Below are positions 5,012 through 62,472 of a stretch of DNA of 64,000 nt, one piece after another. The DNA comes from Candidatus Bathyarchaeota archaeon (GTDB taxonomy: Archaea; Thermoproteota; Bathyarchaeia; Bathyarchaeales; DTEX01): assembly GCA_963714275.1 (NCBI GenBank), contig CAVQNT010000004.1, forward strand, positions 63,071 to 127,070, read 5' to 3'. Within the stretch, counting starts at the first letter, position 1, and every line of letters begins with the position of its first letter. Both the position numbers and the translations under genes were made by a program. The notes under the pieces were generated by a model. It was given only the letters and a program-made list of their open reading frames with translations. It was not told where the DNA came from and did not search any database.

Positions 5012-5904
5012 ATGGCGTTTCGAAAACCGGAACGGGAGCTATCAACCACTGAAATCCTGAGCCTATCCTTAAGCATGTATTCGTCGAAGTTTGACCTTTT
5101 TCTTGTTCCCTTCCTTTTAACCGCTGTCGTGAACAGCTTCGTAAACTATGTGCTTTGGAGGTTTGCGCCAGCCATTGAGTACCTCAAAACACAGCGGAAA
5201 TCGTTACGTGGCTGCTTGATTACTTGATCGCTATTATTCCCGTGTTAGTAGCATCCGTCGTCATCGGCTGGGTCATAAACTCGATAGCCAATGGGATGGT
5301 CATAAAAATGTCCTCTGAGATGTTTGAAGGAAGACCTGCAACCTTCAAAGTTGGGCTAAATTCTGTTCTGTCCAGTCTTCCGACTCTCCTCATTTCTGGC
5401 ATAATAGTATCCGCATTAACGATCCTTGGGTTAATCTTTTTCGTAATCCCAGGAATCATCGCAGTCATAATTTTCAGCTTAACCGTGCAGGTGATCATGA
5501 TTGAACGGCATAACGTTTCTGCGAGTTTATGGAGAAGCAGAAGGTTAGTCGCCAACAGATGGTCAAAAACTTTAGCCATTCTTGTTGCGGTTTTACTGTT
5601 GACAGCCATTTCAAACTTCGTAGGAAGAATCGTAGGCAGCTATGTCGTATCATATGATAGCACCATGGGACTGATAATCGAAAGCATTATTTCGTCACTC
5701 GCCCAACCCATCCAGCCGATTATGTTAACTTTATTTTATTATTCGTTGCGTGCAAGAGAAAAACCCGGAGAACAAGTGATACCTCCTCACCAGTATCCGC
5801 CGATGTCTCCGTTGTACCAGCCTAACTTCTGTTACAAATGCGGAGAAAGACTGCCTCCGGACGCAATCTTTTGCCCCAAATGCGGAGCTAACGTAAAATC
5901 TTAG
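5012..5904 (+). CDS. Multi-pass membrane protein with C-terminal zinc-ribbon (one apparent frameshift)
   Basis: Fragments 5012..5227 and 5224..5904. Several hydrophobic helices, with a C-terminal FCYKCGERLPPDAIFCPKCGANV double CxxC zinc-ribbon. Confidence 0.55.
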
Positions 5905-5987
5905 AAACTTGCAGGCTTACGTTGGCCAGAGTCATCTACCTTTAATATTCCCTTAGTGAATTGTAGAATTAAAAGCGGGAATTAGAC

Positions 5988-33087: not shown

Positions 33088-35067
33088 CTATGATCCTGTC
33101 AATATTGGAAGCATAAGTAAGGCGGTCATGCCTAGAAGCTTCATGAATATGAGGACAGATGGGCCTGCGACGTCTTTCAGCGGGTCTCCTACGGTGTCGC
33201 CAATTATTGTTGCCCTATGTGTGTCTGATTTCTTTCCTCCGTACAGTCCACTTTCAACTAGTTTCTTGGCATTGTCTAGTAGGGCGCCTGTATTGTTGAA
33301 GAAGAAGCCCAACATGGAAGCGGAAGCTATAGCCCCCATGAGCAACATTCCCAACGCGGTTGGACCGAAGAACATGCCCACAGCGATGGGAGTCGCTATT
33401 GAAATGAGTCCCGGCACCAACATTTTGCTTAGTGCAATTTTTGTTGCTATATCAACACATTTGGCATAATCAGGAGTACCTTTGCCCTCTTTTAGTCCAA
33501 CGATCTCCTTGAATTGGCGTCGTACTTCATCAACCATTCTGAAAGCCCCGTCGGCGGTCGCTCCTATCGTCAGAGAGGCTAATGGTAAAGGCAAGACTAC
33601 GCCCAGGAACAGTGCAGCAATGGGGTATGGAGATGCGACTGAGATTACAGAGATATTGGCTGTCGCGAAATAGGTTGCGAAAATTAAGAAGGCGGTAACT
33701 GTGCCTGATGCCATGGCATAGCCCTTGGTTGCAGCCTTCATAGTGTTGCCAACGGCGTCTAGAGAACTCAAGGTTTCAGAAGCTTGTACTGAGATTCCAG
33801 ACATTTCAGCTATTCCCGCAGCATTATCAATTATTGGGCCGAACGTATCAGCAGCCATAATGAACGCAATAGCAAAATCCGTGCCAATATTTGTTATGAC
33901 TAGTCCATAGAGAGACTCGCCAGTGAGCATGAAAGAAAGTACTACAGCAGCCAAAACTGCGATCATCGGAAGCAAGGGAGTTTCCAATCCAGTCGATATG
34001 CCAGTTATCAAGTTTATGGCAGGGCCTGCTTGCGAGGATTCAGCGACATGATGTACAGGCCCACGCCCCAGACCTGTATAGTGCAGTGTAACTAGGACAC
34101 AAACGAGTACTGCTGCAACACCAAGCAAACCTGCAAAGAATAGTGTCACATCATTCAAAAAAAACTTGGTCAAAAAGAACAAGCCAATCGAGCTGAGGAC
34201 GGCTGTAACCATGAGACCGATAACCAAAGATCCTGTGGCGCTTATCCCCTTCCACTGTCTAACTAAAGATATTCCAAACATGGAAGCTAGAACACCAACA
34301 GCTTCTAGGATGAATGGAAATACTACTCCATTGGGGCCGTATCTCGAAATGAAGAGAACACCCATCAACGAACCAGTTATTATGTCGTCACTAAAAGTCT
34401 GGAATAAATCTGAACCTCGCCCAGCGCAATCGCCTACGTTGTCGCCAACCAAATCGGCGATCACGGCCGGATTTCTCGGGTCATCCTCTGGAATCTCCAT
34501 TTCGATCTTACCCACCAAATCGGCTCCAACATCGGCTGACTTTGTATATATGCCCCCTCCGATTTGTGCAAACAATGCCGTGAGGCTTGCTCCAAATCCA
34601 AACCCTACAAGCGCTGAAATATCATTCAAGGCGGTTCGCAACAGGAATAGCGCAACAAGACTTATACCTGGAACCACCAGACCCATAACTGAACCTCCAA
34701 GGAAGCCCGTTCTCAAAGTTTCCCTTGGTGAAAGTACAGCAGCGTTTGCTGTTCTTACGTTTGTTCTTACTGCAACGTTCATGCCGATGTACCCTGCTAA
34801 TAAGGAGAGAAGGACACCACAAACAAAAGATAACGAAGTAGTCCAATTGAAAACGAAGAGAATTATTATAACTAACCAAGGAATGACAAGAATAATAGTT
34901 TTTAATTGTCTCTTAAGGTAGACGTTTGTTCCTATTACAATGTATCTACTCACTTCTCGCATGCGAGCTGTGCCAGAATCTTTTTTAAGAATCCAACGAG
35001 TGATATAAGACGCTGCCAAAATGGCAATCATCCCAACGCTGAAGGCAAACAAGAGTGGATCTGTCAT
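33088..35067 (-). CDS. hppA: Membrane-bound H+(or Na+)-translocating pyrophosphatase
   Basis: 659 aa, polytopic. GGIYTKSADVGADLVGK, DNVGDCAGRGSDLF, GDTVGDPLKD. Confidence 0.93.
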   Translation of the reverse strand: MTDPLLFAFSVGMIAILAASYITRWILKKDSGTARMREVSRYIVIGTNVYLKRQLKTIILVIPWLVIIILFVFNWTTSLSFVCGVLLSLLAGYIGMNVAVRTNVRTANAAVLSPRETLRTGFLGGSVMGLVVPGISLVALFLLRTALNDISALVGFGFGASLTALFAQIGGGIYTKSADVGADLVGKIEMEIPEDDPRNPAVIADLVGDNVGDCAGRGSDLFQTFSDDIITGSLMGVLFISRYGPNGVVFPFILEAVGVLASMFGISLVRQWKGISATGSLVIGLMVTAVLSSIGLFFLTKFFLNDVTLFFAGLLGVAAVLVCVLVTLHYTGLGRGPVHHVAESSQAGPAINLITGISTGLETPLLPMIAVLAAVVLSFMLTGESLYGLVITNIGTDFAIAFIMAADTFGPIIDNAAGIAEMSGISVQASETLSSLDAVGNTMKAATKGYAMASGTVTAFLIFATYFATANISVISVASPYPIAALFLGVVLPLPLASLTIGATADGAFRMVDEVRRQFKEIVGLKEGKGTPDYAKCVDIATKIALSKMLVPGLISIATPIAVGMFFGPTALGMLLMGAIASASMLGFFFNNTGALLDNAKKLVESGLYGGKKSDTHRATIIGDTVGDPLKDVAGPSVLIFMKLLGMTALLMLPILTGS

Positions 35068-35395
35068 AATAATTCCCTTAGATTCGTTTGGTTCCTTTGA
35101 CTATCCAGTAGCGCGCGCTCCGTAGAGGAGTTGGTCACATTTTTTCCCTTCCATGCGTTGGCTTTGTCAAAAGAAAGGATCCCCTTGATAAGGTTGTCTC
35201 CGAATGGTCCAAAACTGACTTATTAGTTATGGTCTTGAGGACTATGAAACCCGAGACCCAGTAGAAGTCTACCCCAAAGATTGTTTCACAGCATTAATAC
35301 AAAAATTAGCCAGGTAGCTCAGCTTCAAAGCCCTTAGAATTAATCTTTTGACGTTGAGGCTTACGACACTTTTTGGATTGGGCCTGATGCTTCCG

Positions 35396-35845
35396 CTATT
35401 TTTCGAAGACATCAGGAGTTGGGTAGTGATTTCGTCCTATTGCTTCAAGTATGTCGTCGGTGAGAGTTTTCTTGCTTAGGTATCTAGCGAAGTCTGTGGC
35501 GGTTATTATTCCAACCGACTTGTTATCCTTTATTACAGGAAGGCGTCGGATTTTCTTGTTGACCATTCTTCTAGCAGCTTCTTTAATCGGAGTTTCTGAA
35601 TCTATTACTCTGAGTGGGGTGCTCATCACATCTGAAACTCTAGTGTCCGCCGATTTTCCCTCCGCTAAGACTCTCCGTACAAAATCCCGTTCAGTGACGA
35701 TCCCGACGGGCGCATTGTTCTCTATGACCACCAAGTCGCCTACGTTATTCTGCGACATTAGGACTGCAGCGTCAATAATAGTCTTGTTAACATCAATGGT
35801 TACAACGTTCTTTGCCATTAAATCCTTGACTTTGATCGTCATCAC
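35396..35845 (-). CDS. CBS-domain pair protein
   Basis: 149 aa, two CBS repeats (VVTIDVNKTIIDAAVLM.., VGIVTERD, RLPVIKDNKSVGIITATD). Confidence 0.85.
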   Translation of the reverse strand: MMTIKVKDLMAKNVVTIDVNKTIIDAAVLMSQNNVGDLVVIENNAPVGIVTERDFVRRVLAEGKSADTRVSDVMSTPLRVIDSETPIKEAARRMVNKKIRRLPVIKDNKSVGIITATDFARYLSKKTLTDDILEAIGRNHYPTPDVFEK

Positions 35846-35933
35846 TTTTCAATAGTAATTGATCATATAAAAATTTTCCCCATCTTTGATTTTGATTTCT
35901 AGTATTGGACGTTGGGCAGTTTTTCGTGCTTCT

Positions 35934-36176
35934 AGCTAGCTATTTGTGTGTGTTTTTTGTTTGTGTTTTTTAGAGAGAGTGTATGTATGTGAGTGAATGA
36001 GAGAAGGAAAGCAAGAGCGTATAAGAGAATTAGTGTGTGTGGGGATTAAATTTTAATCTTTCTCTCTCTCTCGTACGTGTTCTCGTTCTTTCCCAGATAC
36101 TCCCTTGTATTCCCTCACTCCCACTTACGTATAGCGCGCGCGCACGCACGCACACAACAAGCACACGCACAAAAAA
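35934..36176. repeat. Left terminal inverted repeat (near-perfect core 36042-36176)
   Basis: 36042-36176 is the reverse complement of 41971-42105, with one mismatch (position 36051, the centre of GATTAAATTTTAATC). The outer part, 35934-36041, aligns to the right arm only with indels. Confidence 0.9.
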
Positions 36177-36324
36177 ACACTAGATTCTAGACACATTGAA
36201 CTGTGTATGTATACTTTGGTGCGGGCGGCGTAATTTGAACCGAAGTTTTGTTACCACCATGAAGACCACGCACATACCATATATAACTAGATAATACTTA
36301 TGTGACTTAGAAGGTTATATTGCT

Positions 36325-37134
36325 GTGCGAGTTCCAGAGGAAGTTCGCCAATGTGTTGCATTCATTGGTCTTCCTAACTCAACTGGTCAAGTGAGTTTTA
36401 CGGGTACTGCTTTCTTTGTAGCTATGCCTTTGAGTATAAAAGGTAGGTCGATTTGTTATTTAGTAACCGCTAAGCATGTTGCTGATAAGCTAGAAAACAA
36501 AATATCTTATCTCCGAATAAACACCAAAGACGGAAAATCAATGCCACTCCAACTTGATGAGGTAAGATGGTTTTCTCATCCTACTGATAGCTCGGTTGAC
36601 ATTGCAGTCTTACCCTACTCTCCACCTTTGAATGTTGAATACAAGTTTGTCCCAGTTGATCTGTTTCTCTCGGATGACATAATACAAAAAGAAAATATTG
36701 GTGTCGGCGATGAAGTATTTATTACGGGTCTATTTGCTCATGTGAGCGGCTCTCAAAGAAATCTTCCGATAGTACGAATGGGTAATATCGCCATGATGCC
36801 TGATGAAATCATTCCCACAGATCTGGGTAACATCGAGGCATATTTAATCGAAGCCAGATCTATTGGAGGCTTGAGTGGTTCTCCTGCTTTTGTTCGAGCG
36901 ATATCGGGACGTCGTTATTACTTCCTTGGACTAATGCATGGGCATTGGGAAATCCCTCCATATATGAAGAATGATTTATTGATGAATGAAGAACTTTTTG
37001 GAAAAGTTAATATGGGCATCGCAATTGTCATACCAGCAAAAAGGATATTAGAGGTTCTTAATCAGCCAGAATTGATTGCACGAAGAGAAAGGGCAGAAAG
37101 GAATTTAGAAAAGACTGATAAGAACACCCCTTAA
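36325..37134 (+). CDS. Trypsin-like (chymotrypsin-fold) serine protease
   Basis: 269 aa. Catalytic triad contexts LVTAKHV (His), SVDIAVL (Asp), GGLSGSPAF (Ser). Convergent with cas1; the two stop codons overlap in CTTAAG (37131-37134). Confidence 0.75.
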   Translation: MRVPEEVRQCVAFIGLPNSTGQVSFTGTAFFVAMPLSIKGRSICYLVTAKHVADKLENKISYLRINTKDGKSMPLQLDEVRWFSHPTDSSVDIAVLPYSPPLNVEYKFVPVDLFLSDDIIQKENIGVGDEVFITGLFAHVSGSQRNLPIVRMGNIAMMPDEIIPTDLGNIEAYLIEARSIGGLSGSPAFVRAISGRRYYFLGLMHGHWEIPPYMKNDLLMNEELFGKVNMGIAIVIPAKRILEVLNQPELIARRERAERNLEKTDKNTP

Positions 37135-38165
37135 GGCAAAACAGTTCTCGGAATCCATGTTTCCCTTTCATTCCTCAGAAACTTAGCGAACAGCAAGGCT
37201 TCTTCATTAATCAACGTATTCAGCGTTTGTCTCTTCCCAACCTTGATTCTCGGAATATCAACCATACGTTCAAACAATAACCCTAGAGCCTCAGCCAATT
37301 CATTAGTTTCATATTCGCATAAATGAATCTTTTTTCCCATTCTGAGATGCATCATAAAATCTGTTACAAGCACGAAGTCGTTCTTATGATACCTAGAACA
37401 GCGTTCTATCAATAAATCGTCTATGAGGTAACGGTACAATTCTTGGAAATCGCATACTAAGCTAGGCTTGCCAAACTGTACACTGTGCAAGAAGCCTAAG
37501 TAAGGTTCAAGTTTTGCCTTCAACAGCGCCTTATGAACTCTACATCGCAATACATAGTATCCAAAATTGAAAACGTTGTTTATTCCATCGTAAGCCTTGT
37601 ATGTCATTCTTCTTTTAGGTCTAATCTTTTCAGGAAATAAGCTGAAAATCTGGTTAAAGTAGTGTTCAGAAGACTTTCCTTCAAGACCATTAATTTTCCT
37701 TCTGAAAGATTCATTCCTAGACGATTCCAACCTTTCGATATGGCTTTCTAAATTTGGATCAATAGGCAATAAACCATATTTCCTTAAAACTCTCCTCTGT
37801 CCCTCAATTTTGCATAAAACTAATTGTTTAGTGATATAGACGCTCTTTCCATTCTTCAGAGCTTGATACTGCGCTATCCGAGTTTTGACATGACTATCGT
37901 CTTCAATGTTTTTCAGAACTGCTACAACCCTGTTTTTCTTTGTCATGATATAAGTGTCGATATTCCATAATGCAAGGTCAATTAAAGCGTCAACTGAAAC
38001 GTAATTTCCACTCCTGAGGATGCATTCGCCTATTTCCTTTTCAAAATGTGGATAACGAGTAATATTTCCCGTCTTATCTCGAGATTCAAAACAGCCTTCT
38101 CCCCTACCCAAATAAGAACCATAACCATCTAATGTCAATCGTAAGATTTTTGTACCACGAACCAT
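37131..38165 (-). CDS. cas1: Cas1 family integrase (casposase-like, solo)
   Basis: Intact 344 aa. LTLDGYGSYLGRGEGCF (N-terminal beta domain), LEGKSSEHYF, NNVFNFGYYVLRCRV, LEPYLGFLHS, PSLVCDFQELYRYLIDD (conserved E/H/D-E metal-binding set). Confidence 0.9.
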   Translation of the reverse strand: MVRGTKILRLTLDGYGSYLGRGEGCFESRDKTGNITRYPHFEKEIGECILRSGNYVSVDALIDLALWNIDTYIMTKKNRVVAVLKNIEDDSHVKTRIAQYQALKNGKSVYITKQLVLCKIEGQRRVLRKYGLLPIDPNLESHIERLESSRNESFRRKINGLEGKSSEHYFNQIFSLFPEKIRPKRRMTYKAYDGINNVFNFGYYVLRCRVHKALLKAKLEPYLGFLHSVQFGKPSLVCDFQELYRYLIDDLLIERCSRYHKNDFVLVTDFMMHLRMGKKIHLCEYETNELAEALGLLFERMVDIPRIKVGKRQTLNTLINEEALLFAKFLRNERETWIPRTVLP

Positions 38166-38249
38166 TATATCACCCTCTTTTCATCACATAATCATAACGC
38201 AAAAATAATTTATAAATCTTGTGATGCTAAAGTAATGAGGATGTAGTGA

Positions 38250-38408
38250 ATGAGTCTTAAACTGAAAAGAACCCTGAGTGAATCAGGGCGAACTTTAGTT
38301 CTCCGACTACCAAAAGATGTTGAACGCTCTCTTTCACTTAAAGCTGGAGACCAAATTCATATTTGGGTTGAGAATGGAAGAATCATCATCGAGCCAATAA
38401 CGAGCTAG
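38250..38408 (+). CDS. AbrB/SpoVT(MazE)-like DNA-binding small protein
   Basis: Not in the track (52 aa). MSLKLKRTLSESGRTLVLRLPKDVERSLSLKAGDQIHIWVENGRIIIEPITS, the swapped-hairpin pattern (v.iPk.i...l.l..Gd.v.i....g.iii.p). Divergent from cas1 across an 84-bp AT-rich spacer. Confidence 0.65.
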   Translation: MSLKLKRTLSESGRTLVLRLPKDVERSLSLKAGDQIHIWVENGRIIIEPITS

Positions 38409-38415
38409 TTTCAAA

Positions 38416-38949
38416 TTAGTCTCCGATTTTAATAATGTCCGCAGTATAAGACATTTGAAGTTCATTTAATGTAACTATAGTCATTAACTCCTGCCACTCG
38501 ATCTCACCCAACGAAAGATATTCTCCAGAACCACCATTCTTTAATTCAAACTCAATTTCAGCAACAAAAAGCCCAAGAACCAATCTACAAGAACCGTGAC
38601 TTCGCATTAGACTACGGTATAGAAAGAAACTCTTGAGTTTAAGACTTATATTCAAAGTAGTTTCCAACCACTGCTTCACTTGAACCAAATCTGCAAAATT
38701 GAATTTAACAAAAATAGATTTCCTCATAAATTGTATTAGAACAGAGTAATCTGGATACTTGAAGAAAGTGTAACTTCTAAATGGGATTCTGAAATAGGCT
38801 ATTATTGATTTCTCTCCTGAATTACCTTTATGCGTTACATTATCTTTTATTAAAATGTACACACCTTCTTTGTTCGTAGGCAATTCGATCTCTGTTGAGC
38901 TCTCAAAAGTCACATGCCCGCCTTTGTATACTTCTTTCAATTTGACCAC
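38416..38949 (-). CDS. Hypothetical protein (element cargo)
   Basis: 177-aa ORF, no recognisable motif. Confidence 0.4.
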   Translation of the reverse strand: MVKLKEVYKGGHVTFESSTEIELPTNKEGVYILIKDNVTHKGNSGEKSIIAYFRIPFRSYTFFKYPDYSVLIQFMRKSIFVKFNFADLVQVKQWLETTLNISLKLKSFFLYRSLMRSHGSCRLVLGLFVAEIEFELKNGGSGEYLSLGEIEWQELMTIVTLNELQMSYTADIIKIGD

Positions 38950-39003
38950 CGAAAAACCGACTCGGTTGCAGATACAATATCTTCAGATTATGGTGATATA
39001 AAG

Positions 39004-39219
39004 ATGCGATTGGGTTTAACCGAGAGGCTGAAGGCAGATGCTCTGCGATTTCTAAATCAAACAACATTAGCGATCAGTGTCTCGGATTTAGCCAAAAACC
39101 TGAATGTTTCGTGGTCGACTGCGCGTCAAATCCTAACCGAATTAACGCTTGAAGGAAGAATTGAGTGCCAGAAGACCACCAACTGGAAAATCTACAAACC
39201 TAAAGAAAATGATAGGTAG
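39004..39219 (+). CDS. Winged helix-turn-helix DNA-binding protein
   Basis: Likely start is the Met at 39004 within track ORF 38914..39219. ISVSDLAKNLNVSWSTARQILTELTLEGRIECQKTTNWKIYKP. Confidence 0.6.
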   Translation: MRLGLTERLKADALRFLNQTTLAISVSDLAKNLNVSWSTARQILTELTLEGRIECQKTTNWKIYKPKENDR

Positions 39220-39237
39220 TGTCAGGGAGGCTAAGAT

Positions 39238-39561
39238 GTGAAGGCTGAAAACGAGAATTTAAATGAAATCCTTTGTACAACGGATGAGGACAGAAAAATC
39301 AAACAATATTTGAATGAGCGACTTGGACCAGAACCTGTAGTTGCAGGTTCTAGACGTAGGTGGGATTTCCTACAAAGATGTGCTTTTTACATCTATTCAG
39401 AGAAAGAAGTGTCTTTTGTCTACATAGTTAAGTGGTTTGCCAAAAACGGTGAATGCCTGAAGGTCAGAACGATTCTGGAAGATTACATTCAATACCTAAA
39501 CACTCTGGGAATTGTTGAGTTTAATGTAGGTACAAAGACAGTCAGGTGGAAGCAACAATGA
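39238..39561 (+). CDS. Hypothetical protein with wH-like C-terminus
   Basis: 107 aa. TILEDYIQYLNTLGIVEFNVGTKTVRW. Confidence 0.4.
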   Translation: MKAENENLNEILCTTDEDRKIKQYLNERLGPEPVVAGSRRRWDFLQRCAFYIYSEKEVSFVYIVKWFAKNGECLKVRTILEDYIQYLNTLGIVEFNVGTKTVRWKQQ

Positions 39562-40079
39562 GGTTTAATTTCAGGATTGTGAAGTTCGGATGGACATTTT
39601 TCTTTATGCTGGCTAAGACTCAGAGTTTGGAAGGCTTAACGTCTCTGCTGTCAGATGGCAGACATATAGTAATGTGGGATCTTGAAAACTGCAATCTAGA
39701 AGAAGCTTCAAGGATTTTGATAAGGGTTCAAAGGAAAAATAATCTTAGCCACATTTACATCGTAAGTGATGCCGAAGGCTCTTACCGCGCATGGTGTTTT
39801 TCAAGTGTTACTTTCAAAAAGTTCCTCCGCATCCTTGTAGACTCTCTTGAAATCATAGATTATTCGTTTTTCTATTACACGGTCAAAAGATTAAAGGCAA
39901 CATTGAGAACGAGCAATAAAAAGAAAAGACCGCCTCAACGATTGGTACGCGTTCTAGAATCTTACCCTACAGATTTTCCCATTAAAATGGAGAAAGTCAT
40001 CTATGACACTGGCTTAGTGAAAAGAGGTTACACTATTTCTTTAGGTGATCGGCTTGGATCAATTTCCAGAAGCGTTTAA
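39546..40079 (+). CDS. Hypothetical protein (possible replication-related, speculative)
   Basis: 177 aa (likely start 39558). Acidic HIVMWDLEN and IYIVSDAEGSYRAW segments loosely recall the DxD / sGxGxH spacing of AEP prim-pol proteins, but the His is absent. Confidence 0.35.
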   Translation: MEATMRFNFRIVKFGWTFFFMLAKTQSLEGLTSLLSDGRHIVMWDLENCNLEEASRILIRVQRKNNLSHIYIVSDAEGSYRAWCFSSVTFKKFLRILVDSLEIIDYSFFYYTVKRLKATLRTSNKKKRPPQRLVRVLESYPTDFPIKMEKVIYDTGLVKRGYTISLGDRLGSISRSV

Positions 40080-40348
40080 GCGATTTGAAAAAGTCGTAGA
40101 CACAGAAAACATAAAAAGCTTTGCAAAGTTGCAGTTAGCTTTCCGTTCTTGGGCAGGACGGAATTGGAAAGGTACGCCAAAGCAAAAAGAAGACTCTTAT
40201 GGCTGAAGCCCAAAAACATGGAATCCTGGCTCCGCCTGAAAGAGTGATTGCAACTTGGAGACGTGAAGATGTCAGAGTCGGAACGAAATCTCAAGTTAGA
40301 TACCGAGACATTAAATCAGGGCGCTTCATAAAGAACCCTTTCCAGTAG
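40045..40348 (+). CDS. Possible small gene split by a frameshift (40045..40206 and 40199..40348)
   Basis: Two short protein-like frames, FPEAFKRFEKVVDTENIKSFAKLQLAFRSWAGRNWKGTPKQ and MAEAQKHGILAPPERVIATWRREDVRVGTKSQVRYRDIKSGRF. Neither is in the track (under 60 aa). Confidence 0.25.
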
Positions 40349-40551
40349 TGTCTAAAATCAAATGATACACACAAAAACCCCAAAACAGCGCTTTAGCAAT
40401 GACATTGACATTGTCAAAGGCACTGCTAAGGGCCTTTAAATTGCGTCTATACTGTCTAGAAACTCGATTACTGTCTCTAAATGTCTAGAGATTGGAGTTT
40501 TTGTCTCAGAAAATGTTTTAAAGTCTTAATTTTAAGTAAAATATGATAGAA

Positions 40552-40722
40552 ATGTCTCAACTGACTGAAGTAGAACTTGCTGAAAGGATTATTCTCTTTC
40601 ATGATACCCAGTCACTTAGTTTTCGAAAAATTTCAAGGAAATTGACTGATGAAGGCATACAAGCGAGTAAAGACAAGGTTCGCAAGATCTATCTCCGATA
40701 CAGAGCTGCTAAAGGAATCTGA
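40552..40722 (+). CDS. Small HTH protein
   Basis: 56 aa, not in the track. MSQLTEVELAERIILFHDTQSLSFRKISRKLTDEGIQASKDKVRKIYLRYRAAKGI (resolvase/terminase-small-like HTH). Confidence 0.45.
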   Translation: MSQLTEVELAERIILFHDTQSLSFRKISRKLTDEGIQASKDKVRKIYLRYRAAKGI

Positions 40723-40741
40723 GATAGACCAGAAAGCGGTT

Positions 40742-41296
40742 ATGGACGAAGATCTTAAGGCGTTAGTTGAAAAAGAAAAGGAAGCTCAGAAAAAAGTCGA
40801 GCTTGCAAAAATCAAGAATGAAAAAAGAAGAAACATTTTAGATTTGCGCATTAAGGAGTTGGACTGGAGCCTCGAAGACCGTGAAAGGCTCTTTGCGGAT
40901 AGGCAAGAGCTCTTTTGGCTTATGAAGGAGATTTTGTGTACTCATGAGCCAGCTCTCTGGTTGCGGTTATTGGAATTTTCCAATGAAGAAAATGGGCTGG
41001 TAGATATTGTCCAAGAAGTGATCGGCAGCCAGACTCTCTATGAAGAGATGAGAGTAAGAAATGAAAAGGACAATGTGGAATATCTCCTAAATCATCACGT
41101 TGTATTAAGTATCGAAGACTGGTTGGTTAGTAAGCAAAGCTTCAAGTCAGAGGGATTACCAGAAAAAGCGAAAGGATCAGGGATCACAGAAGGAAGCGAC
41201 GAGGAAGATATTGTTTTAACGATCCCAGTTGATAACAATGTTCGGCGAATATTTCACTATTACAACGTTAAAAGGTCAATGTCATCTAAGTCATAG
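40742..41296 (+). CDS. Hypothetical coiled-coil protein
   Basis: Probable start is the Met at 40742 within track ORF 40649..41296. Charged K/E-rich N-terminus. Confidence 0.4.
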   Translation: MDEDLKALVEKEKEAQKKVELAKIKNEKRRNILDLRIKELDWSLEDRERLFADRQELFWLMKEILCTHEPALWLRLLEFSNEENGLVDIVQEVIGSQTLYEEMRVRNEKDNVEYLLNHHVVLSIEDWLVSKQSFKSEGLPEKAKGSGITEGSDEEDIVLTIPVDNNVRRIFHYYNVKRSMSSKS

Positions 41297-41441
41297 AGGA
41301 AGCATGTGCTAGTTGTATTGTCCTTCAGCCCAAAAAAAGATATTCTGGTAGGTGCTAACTTAACATAAAATATAGGTGCCAACTTCATGCTATCTCACTA
41401 TTTTATTATGGAAAACGACGGTAATAATATCGTGTAAATGG

Positions 41442-41957
41442 ATGGCTGTTGTTGAGATTAGTTGTCCTCGATGCGGTTCCGTTTCTCATTTAAAAAATGA
41501 AAAAACTAACGAGTATCGTTGTGACAATTGTAGCACGACGTTCGTACTTGTAGATACAATGAAGAAAGAAGTTGTTCGAGACACCAAAAGACATAATTGC
41601 CCTACTTGTGGGCGACCAGTATCTAGAACAGAAGCTTATGTCTGCACAGAATGCGGAACTGAGGACTTATGCAAGAATTGCTTGGTCGAAATTAATAATA
41701 AAATTGTCTGTATGGAATGTGCAAAAAAAGAAGGAAAAGCGTGCTATATTTGTGGCAAGAAAGCATGGTGGCATTGTGGTGTCTGTGGGCATACGGCATG
41801 TCGCAACCACGCTGACAGATTTAACTTAAAAGGTAATTACTTGTGTCCTAATTGTGGTGCCGTATGTAAAAATTGTTATGTTGAGAAAGTCGATTTTCTC
41901 GGTAAAACCTTCTACTGTAAGAAATGTGGGACAAAATTAACGCGTGGGAAATTATAA
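41442..41957 (+). CDS. Multi-zinc-ribbon protein (about 8 CxxC pairs)
   Basis: Probable start MAVVEISCPRCG at 41442 within track ORF 41376..41957. Repeated CxxC...CxxC units run throughout. Confidence 0.5.
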   Translation: MAVVEISCPRCGSVSHLKNEKTNEYRCDNCSTTFVLVDTMKKEVVRDTKRHNCPTCGRPVSRTEAYVCTECGTEDLCKNCLVEINNKIVCMECAKKEGKACYICGKKAWWHCGVCGHTACRNHADRFNLKGNYLCPNCGAVCKNCYVEKVDFLGKTFYCKKCGTKLTRGKL

Positions 41958-41970
41958 AACTAATTAGATC

Positions 41971-42181
41971 TTTTTTGTGCGTGTGCTTGTTGTGTGCGTG
42001 CGTGCGCGCGCGCTATACGTAAGTGGGAGTGAGGGAATACAAGGGAGTATCTGGGAAAGAACGAGAACACGTACGAGAGAGAGAGAAAGATTAAATTTTA
42101 ATCCCAAACCCAAACATATACTCTTATTTCCAATCATTCTCTCATTCTCTCTCTTATTACACATACACACAAAACTAAGTT
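41971..42181. repeat. Right terminal inverted repeat (near-perfect core 41971-42105)
   Basis: Reverse complement of 36042-36176 (134/135). The outer 42106-42181 aligns with the left arm only with indels. Track ORFs 41964..42332 and 41977..42267 are low-complexity translations of the repeat. Confidence 0.9.
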
Positions 42182-42335
42182 GGATTGTTGAGTTGTGCAT
42201 TGAAAGAACTTTATTGAGAATGTTAATGAACAGTATGTGCAATATCAATGCATTCAGTTCAAAGTAAAAAATAAAACAAAGAGAGTATCTTGAAATCAGA
42301 CAGCAAGTATTATCACCCTCTCTCCGAGACACTTA

Positions 42336-43046
42336 GTGTCTAGCACGCGCTATATCACTAGTCAGCTCAAATACTCAAAGCACTACGCGAAGAATCTTAT
42401 ACAAAAAGGTTTCAATGATTATGTGTTCGGTGAGAGCATGCCTATTAGAGAAAATGTGTCACCACAGAAGACCTTGACGGGAAAAAGGGTTTACTTGAGG
42501 CCTTTTTGTATAAATGATTTACCTTACATTCAGAAGTGGTCGAATGACGATGAACTTAGAAAACTAACAGGTGCAATTGCGCCGATGAGTAACGCTGAGA
42601 CTAAGAAGTGGTACGAGGATTTGCTTACTGACAAGGACCGGATGTGGTTTGCGATTGTCCTTAAAAAAGGTGACCGCGTAATAGGGGAGGCTGGATTGTT
42701 GAGAATGTTTAGACCTTGGCGAAATACGGACATGACCATAATAATTGGAGAAAAGGACGCTTGGGGAAAAGGATATGGAACTGAGACTGGTCGTCTGCTC
42801 CTTGACTATGCCTTCAAACAACTGGGTTTTCATAGGATTTCGGTAGGGGTGGTCGGCTTCAACCAGAGAGCATTGAGATTTTGGGAGAGTCTTGGTTTCA
42901 AGAAGGAAGGCATCGAGAGAGATGAATATTACTACGACAACGAATACAGCGACGGCATCATGATGAGTATTTTAGAAGATGAATTCAAGAAGGCACACGA
43001 GACTGCTAGCGCGCGCGCTCTGCGCTACCACCACCACCAAAATTGA
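42336..43046 (+). CDS. GNAT family N-acetyltransferase (RimJ/RimL-like)
   Basis: VYLRPF..DL..I..W, VIGEAGL, WGKGYGTE, RALRFWESLGFKKEG. The true start is probably the internal Met at 42438. Confidence 0.82.
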   Translation: MSSTRYITSQLKYSKHYAKNLIQKGFNDYVFGESMPIRENVSPQKTLTGKRVYLRPFCINDLPYIQKWSNDDELRKLTGAIAPMSNAETKKWYEDLLTDKDRMWFAIVLKKGDRVIGEAGLLRMFRPWRNTDMTIIIGEKDAWGKGYGTETGRLLLDYAFKQLGFHRISVGVVGFNQRALRFWESLGFKKEGIERDEYYYDNEYSDGIMMSILEDEFKKAHETASARALRYHHHQN

Positions 43047-43189
43047 CGGAAAGCTTGCACATTGACATTGCTGCATTGAATGTACTGAAAAGCAATAAGC
43101 AAAGTAGACATGCAGAATGCAAGAATCAAAAGGGTATTTTATGCGTATATCCTTTCGAGTAGTTAGCTAGCTTAGCTAATTTAAGTAAC

Positions 43190-43690
43190 TTGTTTATAAT
43201 ATTTAAGAAAAGGGGTGGAGATATGATGGAAGAGTTCAGATTAGGAAATGAAGAAAAGATACTTTTAGATACTGTTACTGATGAGGATTATAAGGTTAGA
43301 CTTAAAAACAGAGTAGTTGTTACCAATCAACGATGCGTTTTCTTTAGAGTTTATGAAGTGCATCACAAAGCCAAAGCCATAAATCCCGCCACAGGAAAAA
43401 GCGAGGAAATAAAGCCCGAATTCAGAATAGAACAAGAAATAAAATTGAATAATATTAAGGAAACTTTTGCTCATTATTTTAATGGAAACGTATGCATAAA
43501 ATTTAAACTAACGAATGGACAGACAGCAATTTTTCCAATTTTTTCCTATTTAGATAGGGAATTAAGTTCCGCCTTAGATGTTTTAACACAAACAGCCTTC
43601 TCTGGGTCTGGTAGTCTTATGTTAATGATGATGGATGATATGTTTTTAGTTAATAGATTAGTGAGTTACATTAACAAATTGATAAAATAA
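43190..43690 (+). CDS. Hypothetical protein (AT-rich, possibly PH/GRAM-like)
   Basis: 166-aa ORF. No catalytic motif recognised. Confidence 0.35.
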   Translation: MFIIFKKRGGDMMEEFRLGNEEKILLDTVTDEDYKVRLKNRVVVTNQRCVFFRVYEVHHKAKAINPATGKSEEIKPEFRIEQEIKLNNIKETFAHYFNGNVCIKFKLTNGQTAIFPIFSYLDRELSSALDVLTQTAFSGSGSLMLMMMDDMFLVNRLVSYINKLIK

Positions 43691-44256: not shown

Positions 44257-46851
44257 ATGAAAGTTTCACAAATAATCGTATTCATATTTTTAGTTGCGTT
44301 CTGCATTTCCTTTACCTCGATCCCAACCCAAGCCATCAATGTTTCCCAGCAAGTAGATGCAGTTCCCGTATACTTATCCATACAAGTCAGAGACTATAAC
44401 ACAGGCATTGCAGTTACCAATTTATCAGTAACTGTTGGTATTAACACAGATTGGGGGTATCGTGAAATCTCTAATCGGACAAGTGAGACTGGAGTTGTGC
44501 AAACAACTCTTGGAAACATTGAAATAAATACTATTTTCCTGACTATGTCGCTTGAATATGTTGACTTATCTGAAAATTATACGTTGATTAAAGTCCAGAA
44601 CACGTTTATTGAGGAATTGCAGCTATCTAACTTTTATGGTTTATATAGTGAATACAGTGCGAACCACACGAGATATTTTTTTGAAATTCTTTTATCACAC
44701 AGGGTTTTGACTGACAGACAATACGTAGAGGGCACAATATGGGTTCTTAAGGGTAAGCTCGTTAGAGTTTTAGACAGTGACCCAGTAACTGGAACACATC
44801 AAAATCTTATCGTGACACCTGCGATTTTGACAAATACACCTAGTAATGTAAGCGAGTTTGAGCGATTGTATTTCTTCCCGCTTGATTATGAAGTAACGAT
44901 GTATCATGAAACCCAAACGTGGCAAAATGTTGAAACTGAAAAGTTGAGATATGGTATAGATCCAGTTTCGCCGTTGATAGTCACTGTTGAGGTAAACACG
45001 ACCTTAATCAACTGGATGCGCCACGCAACCATTGAATATGTGAAACGTGCAAAATACAACATGGATAGAGAGTTCGAGTTCTTTAACTCCACAGGATATC
45101 CGCTTGACAGAGAACTGGAAGAGTACAACGCAATAAATAGCCTTTGGAATCGAGTCTTAGAACTCTACGATAAAGGCGAATACGCAGCAGCTTTCGGTGG
45201 CGCCAAAATCTCTGACAATAAATTTCTTAATCTCTTGAGTTGGCTTTATGATAATAAAATTACTGCAGTGTTTACAGCAGTTGGTATAAGCCTGTTTGCG
45301 TTTGGGTTAGGGTCGTTGCTTTCGAATTTTATTTTTGACGAACCATCTCAAAACAAGATTCGGCTTATACTAAAAGTTTTAATATTCTCTTTGGTCATGT
45401 TGATGTTTTCGCTTTCTCATCCTGCACTGAAAATAACTTTCGCCATGTTAATTGGAAGTAGAAGCGTTAGCTTACCGTTGTCTCTCCTAGGTTGCCTGGT
45501 AATAGGAATCATGATCTATTTTGTTATGCTGCTGATCTCAGTAAATCAAAAGACGATAACTGATCTTGCTTTGCAATTGGGTGTAAGAAGTCTGAAACGT
45601 AGAAAGTCCAGGACCCTGCTGACTCTATTAACAATCACGATCATTGTTTCTTCAGCCATAGTCTTCGTGAATATTTCCTTGAGCCGAGAAACCAGATTTA
45701 AGGGGCAATGGAAAGGCACCAGTACTTCCGGTGTTTTAGTAGAGCCAGACACTTACGCAGCCCCCATTTCTGAGTACGATGTAAATTGGACTCGTTTACA
45801 GCAATGGTGCAAAGAATTATCTTACATTGAATCAATACGAGACCAAGAGAGATCGCTATCAGGAGACCTACTAGTTCGTCAAGGGTACATCTCAGTCTGT
45901 TGGAGAAAGATACCCTGTCAACATAGTATGCATAGATCCCTCTTACATGGAAAAATACTACAACTTATTCTCGACGCATCACAGGCTTCTGGAACCAGTT
46001 CGTTGAAGGAGAGCCTGTTGTCATAATTCCGTCTGACTTTAATTTCCTAGTTAGCCAGGATGTTTATTTAAGTGTAACAGAACAGGTTGGAGTTTCGTTC
46101 GGTCCGCCCCCGGAAAGGACATTAGGCAAGTTTCGTGTAATAGGTACTTTCGATTCACAGACAGCCTTCAGCGATCTTGTAAAGATAGATAACACTCCCC
46201 TGTTTGAGAATCCTTCAGGAATCGTTCTAGTTCCATTAAAGTCTATTCAAGATTCGAGCATTAGCGATTTCCGAGGTCACAATCTTTGTAAACCAAGGTT
46301 ACAATCCTGTTGATGTAGCTCAGGAACTCGCTTACACACTTGCAGCCACAACAATAGCAAATTATAACGGATTGTCTCAAAAAATAGTTTGGTCAACAGA
46401 ATTTTCAGTTATTGGCCTTATACCTTACATGCCTCCACTCATCATAGCGGGATTAATGATGTACACCACAATGGTGTCAGTTTATGAGGAGAGAAGAAGA
46501 GAATTTTCAACTCTAGCAACCCTTGGACTCGACCCAAAGAACACACTTCAAGTTTTCCTTGTTGAAGCGCTTCTACTCGGACTAATGGGAACATTCATCG
46601 GCTTTTTTGGCAACTACCTCTTAGGAACAGGCATAACTTTCCTGTCAAGTTTTATTGCTGCCCCGGGGTTTGAGGCTTTGGAGCTTCCTCTTGCACATTG
46701 GTCAATGCCTTCAATCCTAGTTGCTCTTTTAACCGGTGTTGTTATGGTTTTTCTCGGAGGATACATACCTGCTAAAAGGGCGCGTGGAATAAGCCTCATG
46801 GGAAGGGAGCAAAAACGGGAGATGGTTGGAGAGCTTAATAACTTCTGGTAG
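44257..46851 (+). CDS. Large membrane protein: N-terminal extracellular domain fused to a MacB/FtsX-type permease (two or more frameshifts)
   Basis: Fragments 44257..46026, about 46030-46370 and 46372..46851. Signal/TM at the N-terminus. FtsX TM1 signature LGVRSLKRRKSRTLLTLLTITIIV. C-terminal FtsX domain VYEERRREFSTLATLGLDPKNTLQVFLVEALLLGLMGTFIG. Confidence 0.65.
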
Positions 46852-52405: not shown

Positions 52406-52678
52406 TTATTAATACCTTCCCTTTCGATGGTTTTTGGCGAAGGGGCAACAAGAAGAACCTTCTTCATGATCATAAACCACCCAAAACGTCAAGTTGAAAT
52501 ATATACAATTTTGTAACTTAACCCTTACGATACTAAAGAAATATATAAGATGATGGAAGTTTTTGATGTTACCAAACTGATTTTGAAAGCAAAATCATTG
52601 AAAGTTAATCAAAATTTTAAATCATTATTAAAACAAAAGAACTATTTAATTGTAGAAAAGACGAAAAAGAGGATCGGA

Positions 52679-55262
52679 ATGAAAGAGAAAAATAACAATG
52701 TAAAAAATCAATCAAGATTATTAAAAGTTAATTTGCCCATCCCATTTTACTGGTGGGCATTGCCGAAAGAAAAAATATTGGAAAGTCTACATGTCGATCC
52801 TAAGAATGGTCTATCAATCAAGCAAGTTCAAGAACACCGAGCGATTTTTGGTGCAAATGTCCTAAAGGAACTGAAACCCACGAGTATTTGGAGACTAGTA
52901 CTTGAAGGCATTAAACAGCCGATGATGGTTCTGCTACTATCAATCGCCGCTATTTCATTTATTTTCAGAGAACTTGTTGAAGGAGTGGTAATGATCTTTG
53001 TTGTCGCCGCATACATCTCGGTTGAGTTCATAAACAAGTTTCGATGCCGATCGCACCATGGCTCGGCTCAGAGAACTCACCCAACCCACCACCAAAGTCA
53101 TTCGAGAAGGCAAGGAACAGGAGATTCCCACAGCAGATGTGGTTGTTGGCGATCTGATAATACTCTCTGCTGGCGTTCGCGTCGCAGCTGATGCCCGGCT
53201 AATAGAATCAAGCGGTCTACTAGTGAATGAAGCCTCGCTGACAGGTGAATCACAGCCAGTAAGAAAAGAAGCTGGAGCGGAAGTTGCCGAAAAATCAAAT
53301 ATTGCTGAAAGGGTCAACTCTGTTTTCTCTGGTACAACAGTTTTTGACGGTGAAGGAAAGGCAGTTGTCTTGGCGGTTGGCGAGAAAAGTGAGCTCGGAA
53401 AAATTGCAGAAGAAGTAGGAACAGCTCAGAAAGAGCAGACGCCATTGCAGCAAGCGATGACAAGACTTGTGAAGAACCTAGCACTGTTCGTGGTCATTGT
53501 CAGTGCCATAATTCCAGCTAATCGGTTTTCTGCGCGGGCTTGACTTGCAGCAGATGGTGTTAACGTGGCTAGCCCTCACGTTTCTCATGGTGCCTGGTCA
53601 ACCTCCAGTTATCATTACGATGGCATTGGCCCTCGCCTCTTTTGAGCTGGCAAGAAAGAATGTTGTAGTGAAGCGTCTACGAGGCGCTGAGACACTTGGG
53701 ATCAGTAACATCGATTGTTACTGATAAGACTGGTACGTTAACTGAAAACAGGATGAGAGTTGAGAAATTCATTCTTGCCAGATGGAGAAGAGGTAGCCCC
53801 ACAAAAAATGCCTCAAGAACTTAAAGAAAAAATTTCACTTGCTCTTCCCGAATACCTCAATGACCCCACTGATGAAGCTGTAGCGCAGATACTTGAAAAG
53901 ACTTCACGAGAGAGAAGCAAAGCCCACTCTCCTTTGAAGGGTTTTCGGAAGGGCATCCATGGCGTACTCTAATCTACAAAAGTAGTGAGGGTTATGTTCA
54001 TGCAGTTGCTGGAAAACCAGAACTTCTAATCGAGTCCTCAACACTTAACTTTGAGAGAAAAGAACGATTGGGAAAAATCGTTACAGTCGAAGGCGATTTG
54101 GGGAAGAGGGTCGTTGCATATGCCACATTTGAATCAGAGATCCCAAAAAAGGACAAACTTGAAGGGATAGATTTCTTAGCATTGGCAGTGCTTGAAGACC
54201 CTGTTCGCGAAGGTGCGAAGGAAGCAGTTGCTGTTCTTACAGATGCTGGTATCAAAACCTATATTGTAACTGGAGATCATCCAGCGACTACAAAAGCCGT
54301 AGCAGAGAAAATAGGGCTGGCTGGGAAAATTGTTACAGGCGATCAACTAGAGAAAATGGATGAGAAGGAACTTGACGAGGTAATCCAGTCAGTTCGCCTT
54401 TTTGCTCGTACGTCGCCTCTGCAGAAACTCCGCCTAGTCAAGGCTCTTCAATCGCAAGGAGAAGAGGTGGCGGTGATAGGAGATGGCGTCAACGACGCTC
54501 CTGCAATCAAATCTGCCAATGTGGGCGTGGCGATGGGTGAGATTGGAACTGACCTTGCTAAAGAGACAGCGGATCTTGTACTGACTGATGACAATTATGT
54601 CCATATCCGTGATGGAGTCGCTATTGGAAGGAAGGCGATTGACAATTTCCGAAAAGGGTTGACGTACTACCTTTCGGCAAAAGCAATTCTCCTCTCTGTC
54701 TTCATCGTTCCTCTGGCTCTGGGTATTCCTTTCCCATTTGCACCGATTCACATTATTTTGATTGAGCTTTTGATGGATTTGGCCTCATCAACAATATTTG
54801 TCACCGAGGTCGCTGAACCAGACGTTTTGAAGCGCCACCCCCAGAAGATAGACGAGTATCTAAAACGCTCTATTTTGTTAAAGAATCTTTCAGAACGGAG
54901 TGGGTCTTGCAATAGGGATTTTGGCGATTTATCTTTCACTCTATCTTCCAGACTAGGAAATGTTGTTTTGGCACAGACAGCTGCTTTCGTAACGTGGCTT
55001 CTAGGACATATCTTTCTAGCGCTTAATTTGAAGCAGGAAAAGGTGTCGCTTCTTGAAACAGGGGATTTTCTCCAACCGCTTTGGCACTTTCTGGCTTCTG
55101 AGCATGGTTGTACTGACTATCTCAATAACCAATGTTGCCCCTGTTTTCCCATATATCAAGACAACTTCGCTTACCTCTATTAATATGGTCGGAGATCTTG
55201 TTTATTGTTATTGTTTCGACATTTTGGATCGAGACTCCGAAGCTGATGCGACTAGGTTTTAG
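52679..55262 (+). pseudogene. Cation-transporting P-type ATPase (type II-like), broken by about 6 or more frameshifts
   Basis: Fragments 52550..53191, 53058..53543, about 53540-53760, 53760..53972, 54068..55183 and 55053..55262. Cation_ATPase_N (LS.KQVQEHRAIFGANVL), TGES, DKTGTLTEN (read in a shifted frame near 53720), GDGVNDAPAIKSANVGVAMG. Confidence 0.8.
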
Positions 55263-62307: not shown

Positions 62308-62472
62308 AGGATATTAGGGTTTCGAACATTAGCAAGCTAGTATTTAGGAAGGAAGGAATTAAAATTTAATGCACACCACCAACCACCCAAGGTGTCGGGC
62401 CTAAAAAGGACTGATGTCTGGACGAAATTACAAAGCCTATGCATGGTAACTATGCATTTTTTGTTTTATTAA

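Follow-up and report, generated by a model that had tools for sequence, protein, structure and literature searches.

The locus considered here raises the question of whether a cas1 gene standing by itself between inverted repeats, with neither a CRISPR array nor a DNA polymerase, can be a complete mobile element. The adaptation machinery of CRISPR is proposed to descend from casposons, which in the textbook picture copy themselves with their own family-B DNA polymerase (PolB). The stretch analysed, called the window below, comprises 64,000 nucleotides of contig CAVQNT010000004.1 from a Candidatus Bathyarchaeota archaeon (assembly GCA_963714275.1, positions 63,071 to 127,070), in which an earlier note had described a polymerase-less, casposon-like element. 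As a working definition, a casposon combines a Cas1-family integrase with terminal inverted repeats and a target-site duplication (about 13-15 bp), and is not linked to CRISPR. The window element has the Cas1 residues, the repeats, the duplication and the lack of CRISPR linkage that this definition names, and its integrase activity is predicted from the sequence. We conclude with good confidence that 36059-42088 is a complete polymerase-less casposon of the published "family 5", lying in the chromosome of a member of the Bathyarchaeia with a CBS-domain gene on one side and a GNAT acetyltransferase gene on the other, the same two neighbours that the earlier note had named.

Ends of the element and its Cas1

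The element had been described as a segment of about 6.2 kb with inverted repeats of 210-240 bp around a 135-bp core. The core was reproduced (36042-36176 against 41971-42105, 135 nt with 1 mismatch), and its mismatch fell at 36051, the central base of a near-palindromic 15-mer. The outermost 17 bp of this core do not belong to the inverted repeat, and the 15-mer inside them is a direct repeat, which had been taken for part of the inverted repeat because it is near-palindromic in the window. The size therefore had to be revised to 6,030 bp, with 118-bp repeats and a 15-bp duplication. The target-site duplication that the note had proposed to look for was present as an exact 15/15 direct repeat abutting both inverted repeats. 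The features that define the element are as follows.

36059-42088: the element, 6,030 bp between the outer ends of the inverted repeats.
36059-36176, plus strand: left terminal inverted repeat, 118 bp, 118/118 complementary to 41971-42088, starting TTTCTCTCTCTCTC.
41971-42088, minus strand: right terminal inverted repeat, 118 bp, 118/118 complementary to 36059-36176.
36044-36058, no strand: left 15-bp target-site duplication, GATTAAATTTTAATC, a 15/15 direct match to 42089-42103.
42089-42103, no strand: right 15-bp target-site duplication, identical on the plus strand to 36044-36058.
35934-36043, no strand: left target-site arm, low-complexity G/T- and G/A-rich DNA outside the 15-bp direct repeat, last bases GTGTGTGTGGG.
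42104-42181, no strand: right target-site arm, first bases CCAAACCCAAAC.
37131-38165, minus strand: cas1, 344 aa, intact; Pfam Cas_Cas1 match (E=3e-41) covering almost the entire model.

In related elements the 15-bp duplication can be non-palindromic, as with GATAAAACTTTACCC (loci L001, L019 and L041) and GACTAAACTTTCGCC (L013), and it is still in direct orientation. A 15-mer that stays direct even where it is non-palindromic must be a target-site duplication and cannot belong to the inverted repeat. The pyrimidine-rich, mostly CT-rich start of the left repeat was also found in other elements. As for the weaker similarity reported further out, it is real, though slight: a patch of about 30 nt with inverted similarity between 35934-36043 and 42104-42181 gave a local score of 29 against 17.7 +/- 2.6 for shuffled sequences, a value reached by 1 shuffle in 500. 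This outer similarity belongs to the target site beyond the duplication and is not part of the repeat; 35934-36043 is host or target DNA outside the element.

The ORF (open reading frame) at 37131-38165 had been called Cas1, and both Pfam and NCBIfam profiles agreed. The general Cas1 model TIGR00287 scored 139 bits against a cut-off of 71.7, and none of the subtype-specific NCBIfam Cas1 models reached its cut-off. The gene is the longest ORF between the repeats, as had been stated. Its catalytic residues E162, H227, D239 and E242 were invariant across the family alignment and in register with those of A. fulgidus Cas1. No C-terminal helix-turn-helix (HTH) extension was found on the protein, which matches the 327-position Cas1 model end-to-end and has 344 aa against 431 aa in the M. 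mazei casposase. With Cas1 intact and both ends perfect, there is no indication that the element is "non-autonomous", one of the options in the earlier note, as far as integration is concerned.

A polymerase-less casposon family in Bathyarchaeia

The "family 5" casposases were put forward by Salgado et al. 2022 (PMC9755687) on the basis of six contigs from hot springs. These proteins keep the catalytic residues, have no C-terminal HTH and stand beside subtype I-A Cas1 in the published tree; a DNA polymerase is missing in most members, which were suggested to be non-self-replicative transposons, and the neighbouring genes were called poorly conserved (PMC9755687). The window element resembles this family in its solo Cas1, catalytic residues, lack of an HTH, inverted repeats and nearness to subtype I-A, and in having no polymerase, as is the case for most of the family. 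The supplementary alignment figure of Salgado et al. 2022 displays the same motifs as the window Cas1. Against reference sequences machine-read from this figure, the identity of the window Cas1 over about 150 residues was 54-66% for five of the six family-5 members printed there and 46% for the sixth, divergent member, Cas1_1244; for two family-2 casposases it was 27-32% over the same residues. The printed Cas1_1219 is almost identical to one of the homologues collected here (P0045). Judged by these identities, the window Cas1 is a member of family 5. The statement in the earlier note that all described casposon families encode PolB is thus out of date, as family 5 was described as mostly polymerase-less, and the element does not represent a new family, since family 5 is already published. 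As published, however, family 5 came with no reported target-site duplication or target and with no tie to Bathyarchaeia (PMC9755687). What is added here is more than 2,000 homologues, a 15-bp motif duplication and, in one subfamily, an operon of three accessory genes, F2-F1-F3. No later description of family 5 was found in literature searches, which did not cover Makarova et al. 2020 on Asgard Cas1. The kind of element is therefore already known, the apparently new detail being the 15-bp duplication, the site-specific and lineage-restricted target, the accessory operon and the abundance in Bathyarchaeia.

The search for further copies that the note had recommended yielded 14 independent elements of the same architecture (the window element included) on Bathyarchaeia contigs, ranging from 3.5 to 10 kb. 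Their common plan consists of Cas1, long CT-rich and near-perfect inverted repeats and a 15-bp duplication, without PolB, a CRISPR array or other cas genes. In the 13 elements scored, again with the window element among them, the 15-bp direct repeats abutting the repeat starts matched at 13-15 of 15 positions; the fourteenth, L096, has the same arrangement. Some relatives, of 3.5-4.6 kb, are too small to hold a PolB gene. The Cas1 homologues, more than 2,000 in number, had lengths of about 345 aa and identities of at least 67% among the best 120. When one genome per species was scanned, 80 loci were recovered, nearly all in Bathyarchaeia and in some genomes several at a time. Many copies are frameshifted or truncated, and the distribution of the family is typical of a mobile element. 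Long near-perfect inverted repeats flanked cas1 wherever the contig was long enough. No CRISPR array was found in 87 related loci, and relatives on contigs of 0.4-0.9 Mb had no cas genes or polymerase within 10 kb of Cas1. A scan of IMG/VR with the Cas1 profile returned a single weak fragment, and the family is accordingly not listed as viral.

Where Cas1 is at least about 63% identical to that of the window, the layout is conserved: a variable ORF precedes cas1 and faces the divergent F2-F1-F3 operon. L169, the closest relative found, has this same gene layout, and a more distant Cas1 subfamily (about 50% identical) is without F1-F3.

Neither the element ORFs nor the large ORFs of the window, nor a further 28 ORFs tested from it, showed a PolB domain, and no other integrase or transposase was found in the element ORFs by Pfam, NCBIfam, PADLOC and PHROG searches. 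The absence of a family-B polymerase among the interior ORFs, as claimed, thus agrees with the profile searches, and the description of a Cas1 element bounded by inverted repeats and lacking this enzyme is supported. The family is a large one, spread through the Bathyarchaeia, with a 15-bp duplication and a defined target, and would move with Cas1 alone; a Cas1-only family of this kind places PolB outside the essential casposon toolkit. As the family-5 Cas1 is nearer to CRISPR Cas1 than the classical casposases are, it may offer a tractable system for the question of how a transposase became a spacer integrase. Public annotations label these genes "CRISPR-associated protein Cas1", a label that, on a solo Cas1, overstates the presence of CRISPR in Bathyarchaeia.

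Several observations were made on other members. At L036:3308-6328 there is a 2,991-bp element without cas1 that carries F3; its ends, TTTTTCTCTCTC, are of the family type and complementary at 11 of 12 positions, and its duplication matches at 14/15. A non-autonomous derivative using Cas1 supplied elsewhere is the probable explanation. In dozens of Bathyarchaeia loci (L044-L087, e.g. L048:6708, L057:49 and L060:3953) the only part of Cas1 present is the C-terminal third to half, beginning at about residue 110-235 and running to 343, which is partly an effect of the search pattern, yet points to many decayed copies. Members in bins labelled Levybacteria, Aenigmatarchaeota, Sulfotelmatobacter and Methanomethyliaceae (L011, L027, L069 and L084) could be mis-binned short contigs or cases of occasional transfer beyond the Bathyarchaeia. 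L066 and L079, from one metagenome-assembled genome (CAVPBD010000011.1 and CAVPBD010000001.1), have about 7 kb with Cas1 fragments in common at 87-94% identity, and represent strain variants or else two copies that have diverged within a single genome. The CRISPR-like k-mer runs in L030 and L062 turned out to be whole-unit tandem repeats of 66 and 99 nt, not arrays.

Target motif and proposed insertion mechanism

The duplicated 15-mers gave the consensus GAT[T/A]AAANTTTA[A/C][T/C]C. Written as a regular expression, this motif matched 67 non-redundant sites in the Cas1-family loci (1.29 Mb), compared to 0-4 in shuffled sequences. Loci from close relatives of the window organism (217 kb) contained 6 sites and loci from distant taxa (655 kb) none. 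When the 67 sites were classed by the composition of the 12 flanking bases, about 27 were element ends, and most of the other 40 were bordered, on one side or both, by inverted microsatellite arms consisting of (TTTGGG)n, (TTGG)n or (TG)n, with the complement opposite. The flanks in the window fit this pattern, with GTGTGTGTGGG before the 15-mer and CCAAACCCAAAC after it, and (CCCAAA)n / (TTTGGG)n arms lie beside the 15-mer at both occupied and unoccupied sites in other genomes. For the reconstructed empty site, folding predicted a hairpin of some 150 nt with the 15-mer at its centre (-28.8 kcal/mol, z = -6.8). The dispersed 15-mer may be either a host repeat or a product of the elements.

The locus upstream of the CBS gene looks like a case of recurrent use of one site. 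In L088, whose pyrophosphatase is 89% identical to that of the window, the same spot upstream of the CBS gene is occupied by the end of another, different element of this type, with the same 15-mer, and neither 15-mer nor element was present at the CBS locus in L106 (the closest relative in the pyrophosphatase comparison) and several others, both closer to the window and more distant from it than L088. Two further observations concern these relatives. At L101:2514-3110 and L102:2254-2884 the GNAT gene lies beside the CBS gene but is inverted relative to the window, and no element separates the two, so an inversion or rearrangement has occurred at that locus. L088, from a close relative of the window organism, also contains, at 5361-5413, the 15-mers GATTAAATTTTAGTC and GATTAAATTTTAATC with only 23 bp of unrelated DNA between them.

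By analogy with the assayed casposases, Cas1 would bind both ends of the element, and the 3'-OH groups (...GAGAGAGAAA-3') would attack the target at both edges of the motif, on opposite strands and 15 bp apart; gap repair by the host would then copy the 15-mer onto both sides. The choice of target would be site-specific, the site being the motif between inverted G/T-rich and C/A-rich microsatellite arms, and because the motif is scattered through the genomes of the lineage, many insertion sites are allowed. Without PolB, the element would be copied passively along with the chromosome. Copying during transposition would fall to host enzymes or, more speculatively, to the F2-F1-F3 operon.

The assayed casposases of A. 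boonei, M. mazei and N. koreensis produce duplications of 14-15 bp, 14 bp and 13 bp, respectively (PMC6977970, PMC8464041), and the 15-bp duplication found here fits this range of 13-15 bp. These enzymes recognise the segment that is duplicated together with bases next to it. Family 2 (A. boonei AciBoo-C1 and M. mazei) is like the window element in being Cas1-driven, with terminal inverted repeats and 14-15-bp duplications, and it integrates site-specifically, recognising sequence beside the duplicated segment (PMC6977970). It differs in encoding PolB and an HNH nuclease, in the C-terminal HTH of its casposase and in its target, which is the 3' end of a tRNA gene and not a dispersed intergenic palindrome; the inverted repeats of M. 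mazei measure about 31 bp against 118 bp in the window. Family 1 (Ca. Nitrosopumilus koreensis) shares a casposase without C-terminal HTH, site specificity and a short duplication of 13 bp, and has a short leader requirement (PMC8464041), but it encodes a protein-primed PolB, belongs to Thaumarchaeota and usually targets the ef-2 gene (PMC6563490). The self-synthesising families 1-4 encode a family-B polymerase, whereas the window element does not.

Some insertion sequences target repeated extragenic palindromes, and their enzymes are DDE or IS110-type transposases. They are alike to the present elements only in behaviour, in that a short, scattered, intergenic palindrome serves as target; the enzymes are unrelated to Cas1.

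Same-orientation 15-mers 0.4-1.5 kb apart were observed beside Cas1 elements in L001 (4739-13954), L031 (12105-14590), L076 (11775-13878), L048 (8018-9960) and L024 (14179-15708). The intervals between such 15-mers, where these are non-palindromic, often contain one gene each. In L001, 4754-5456 holds a gene for 188 aa with no assigned family, and 5472-6808 holds one for a 320-aa protein of the metallo-beta-lactamase fold and has 10-nt inverted ends, CAACCAACCA/TGGTTGGTTG. An all-against-all comparison of the intervals gave few partial similarities across loci, insufficient to show that the cassettes are mobile. We consider it improbable that family-5 Cas1 builds arrays of segments split by the duplicated 15-mer, through repeated insertion at a site that regenerates itself. 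If it did, such an array would stand midway between the insertion of a transposon and an array of repeats and spacers, or be the Cas1-driven equivalent of an integron. The window itself has a further 15-mer-like site on the minus strand at 62357-62395, GGTGGTTGGTGGTGTGC-ATTAAATTTTAAT-TC followed by CTTCCTTCC, which resembles the element ends of L039. No partner repeat for it was found in the window, and it may be an unoccupied or decayed target.

Accessory genes, replication and alternative readings

Besides cas1, the following genes were found between the inverted repeats.

36325-37134, plus strand: cargo gene, 269 aa; PADLOC PDC-S45 (E=4.9e-17), PHROG 7688 (E=3e-19), weak match to LmuA.
38250-38408, plus strand: AbrB/MazE-type (SpoVT-AbrB) ORF, 52 aa; Pfam MazE_antitoxin at 1e-08, above the cut-off.
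38416-38949, minus strand: ORF at the 'X' position, 177 aa, upstream of cas1 on the same strand.
38914-39219, plus strand: winged-helix DNA-binding protein, 101 aa; many weak HTH matches, the best HTH_11 at 7e-05.
39238-39561, plus strand: ORF at the F2 position, 107 aa, divergent or truncated.
39546-40079, plus strand: F1, 177 aa, intact, the best-conserved accessory gene.
40045-40348, plus strand: F3, split by a +1 frameshift in an A5 run at 40184-40188.
40649-41296, plus strand: element-specific ORF, 215 aa; no significant family match in Pfam, NCBIfam, PADLOC or PHROG.
41376-41957, plus strand: zinc-ribbon protein, 193 aa, with several zinc ribbons; weak matches only; element-specific.

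The F3 profile matched in two frames, at 40045-40203 (1e-22) and 40139-40345 (9e-05). The F2 profile did not detect the ORF at 39238-39561; at the DNA level, 39322-39486 is 67% identical to the gene at the F2 position in L169.

Certain points weigh against the reading of 36059-42088 as a complete family-5 casposon. For all members of this Cas1 family, integration activity is a prediction. An orthologous empty site was recovered neither by looking up the proteins of the CBS and GNAT genes on either side (three start variants in all) nor among the H+-pyrophosphatase relatives, so the insertion event itself is one that we infer. Taken alone, the 15-mer of the window is ambiguous between direct and inverted orientation, and the case hangs on the non-palindromic relatives. 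Membership of family 5 is a matter of pairwise identity to machine-read sequences, not of a formal phylogeny. F3 is frameshifted and F2 unrecognisable in the window, and if these genes are needed, this copy may be disabled.

F1 was the most conserved gene after cas1: 10 of 13 elements carry it, as do 13 of the 33 loci where Cas1 is near-full. All of its 226 homologues are unnamed. Residues D41, D71, R77 and W79 were invariant and E43 was present in at least 90% of the sequences, with D41 and E43 sitting at the end of a beta-strand. One alternative is that the element is not functionally polymerase-less and that F1 is a small archaeo-eukaryotic primase (AEP) or Rep-like enzyme priming or starting the element's own replication. 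The element would then replicate itself by a route other than PolB, or the family would consist of integrated plasmid-like replicons that use Cas1 for integration alone. Besides the invariant D41 and D71 and the near-invariant E43, the fold of the AlphaFold (AF2) model (mean pLDDT 73.6, core at least 90) speaks for it: a run of weak PDB matches comprised LigD polymerase domains, Prim-PolC, CRISPR-associated Prim-Pol and viral origin-binding domains, with the AEP primases at E 0.2-1. The best viral fold match (BFVD) was an uncharacterised protein of Pyrobaculum filamentous virus 1 at E=1.3e-4, followed by DUF927, helicase-primase and Rep proteins, and one F1 family member gave an AEP-like Pfam match at 0.056. 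However, no PDB fold match reached E<=0.001, TM-scores were 0.2-0.5, and sequence searches in Pfam, NCBIfam, PADLOC, PHROGs and PDB gave no primase or other family match. Further, about 170 aa is small for a primase-polymerase, and F1-F3 are missing from the Cas1 subfamily that is about 50% identical. Replication through F1 is thus possible but unlikely, and it would refine the reading as a family-5 casposon, with which it is compatible. F1 may be a small primase- or Rep-like replication protein, which, resting as it does on a modelled fold, is offered as a lead and not as a finding.

The damage to the F2-F3 region also bears on whether the window copy is a dead relic, that is, a once-mobile family-5 element that is now immobile chromosomal DNA. 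The split F3, the unrecognisable F2 and the visible decay of many family members elsewhere would agree with this. On the other hand, Cas1 is full-length with all invariant residues, and repeats matching at 118/118 with a duplication matching at 15/15 argue for a recent insertion. The frameshift in F3 falls in an A5 run, and essential genes elsewhere in the window, the DNA ligase and the P-type ATPase, are likewise split in the assembly, which makes an assembly error in F3 plausible. We therefore regard a dead relic as unlikely.

According to another explanation, the gene is a stray or domesticated CRISPR Cas1, either the remnant of a locus outside the window or an inactivated protein of the Cas1-solo group 1 type, and the inverted repeats are incidental. 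In its favour, the closest solved relative by sequence is the CRISPR Cas1 of A. fulgidus (PDB 4n06, E=1.5e-25, alignment over residues 9-257), ahead of the M. mazei casposase (3.5e-19), and the published tree places family 5 next to subtype I-A. The earlier note had held that a Cas1 branching inside a CRISPR-associated clade, with a CRISPR-cas locus nearby, would speak against a casposon; half of this applies, as the window Cas1 is nearer to subtype I-A Cas1 than to classical casposases, yet the clade is solo and mobile. CRISPR Cas1 works with its partner Cas2 and inserts short spacers beside repeats of 25-50 bp, whereas the window has a 6-kb element bounded by inverted repeats, with no array and no cas2 beside cas1. 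Group 1 of the Cas1-solo proteins, from Methanomicrobiales, is inactivated, with catalytic residues lost, and is inherited vertically without signs of mobility (PMC9939771); the window Cas1, by contrast, keeps all four catalytic residues and belongs to a family with inverted repeats, duplications and multiple decayed copies. Since the combination of solo Cas1, inverted repeats and 15-bp duplication recurs in 14 contigs, the gene is not an orphan of a CRISPR locus, and the 87 loci without arrays and the relatives' contigs of 0.4-0.9 Mb without cas genes within 10 kb point the same way. This explanation is already largely refuted and must be considered very improbable. That the inverted repeat is an assembly artefact (a chimeric join or fold-back) is scarcely credible: the window assembly does contain frameshift-type errors, but contigs from many independent assemblies and sources show this architecture as well, their repeat sequences differing while the target motif stays the same.

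The surroundings of the element in the window were also inspected. No tandem or CRISPR-like array was found there, and no convincing cas domain in the element ORFs and 28 other window ORFs; to this extent the earlier claim of a window free of cas2, cas4, effector genes and arrays stands, small ORFs not having been exhaustively scanned for cas2 or cas4. The sole cas-named match among the ORFs tested was a weak one to Csm3 (E=3e-4, 18.8 bits), which is probably spurious. The window has no tRNA genes, no second element was found in it, and an Rfam scan of 35000-43200 gave no RNA family match. Its large ORFs encode housekeeping proteins (phenylalanyl-tRNA synthetase beta chain, ATP-dependent DNA ligase, an aminotransferase, a PLP-dependent enzyme and a membrane pyrophosphatase), and outside the element the window has the appearance of normal chromosomal DNA. 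Frame-split genes were observed at 6341-7748 (the ATP-dependent DNA ligase), 52550-55183 (a P-type ATPase in at least 3 pieces) and 44257-46851 (an apparent LolE/FtsX-type permease, for which two adjacent ORFs match different parts of one PADLOC model), and the window assembly probably has insertion/deletion errors.

The ORFs on either side of cas1 encode the PDC-S45-like protein and the 177-aa protein without an assigned family. In relatives, an 'X' ORF of 130-250 aa lies directly upstream of cas1, and several of these appear by eye to be winged-helix proteins; a profile search detected no similarity between them and the 'X' ORF of the window. The winged-helix ORF at 38914-39219 also had weak matches to Csa3/CasR-type HTH models in PADLOC. 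The ORF at 40649-41296 was not conserved in other elements. The same holds for the gene at 36325-37134, the largest cargo gene of the element, for which there was no Pfam or NCBIfam match. By eye, its product shows a trypsin-like His...Ser (GLSGSP) pattern and thus resembles a serine protease. It is a candidate defence protein, and this casposon may carry a defence gene.

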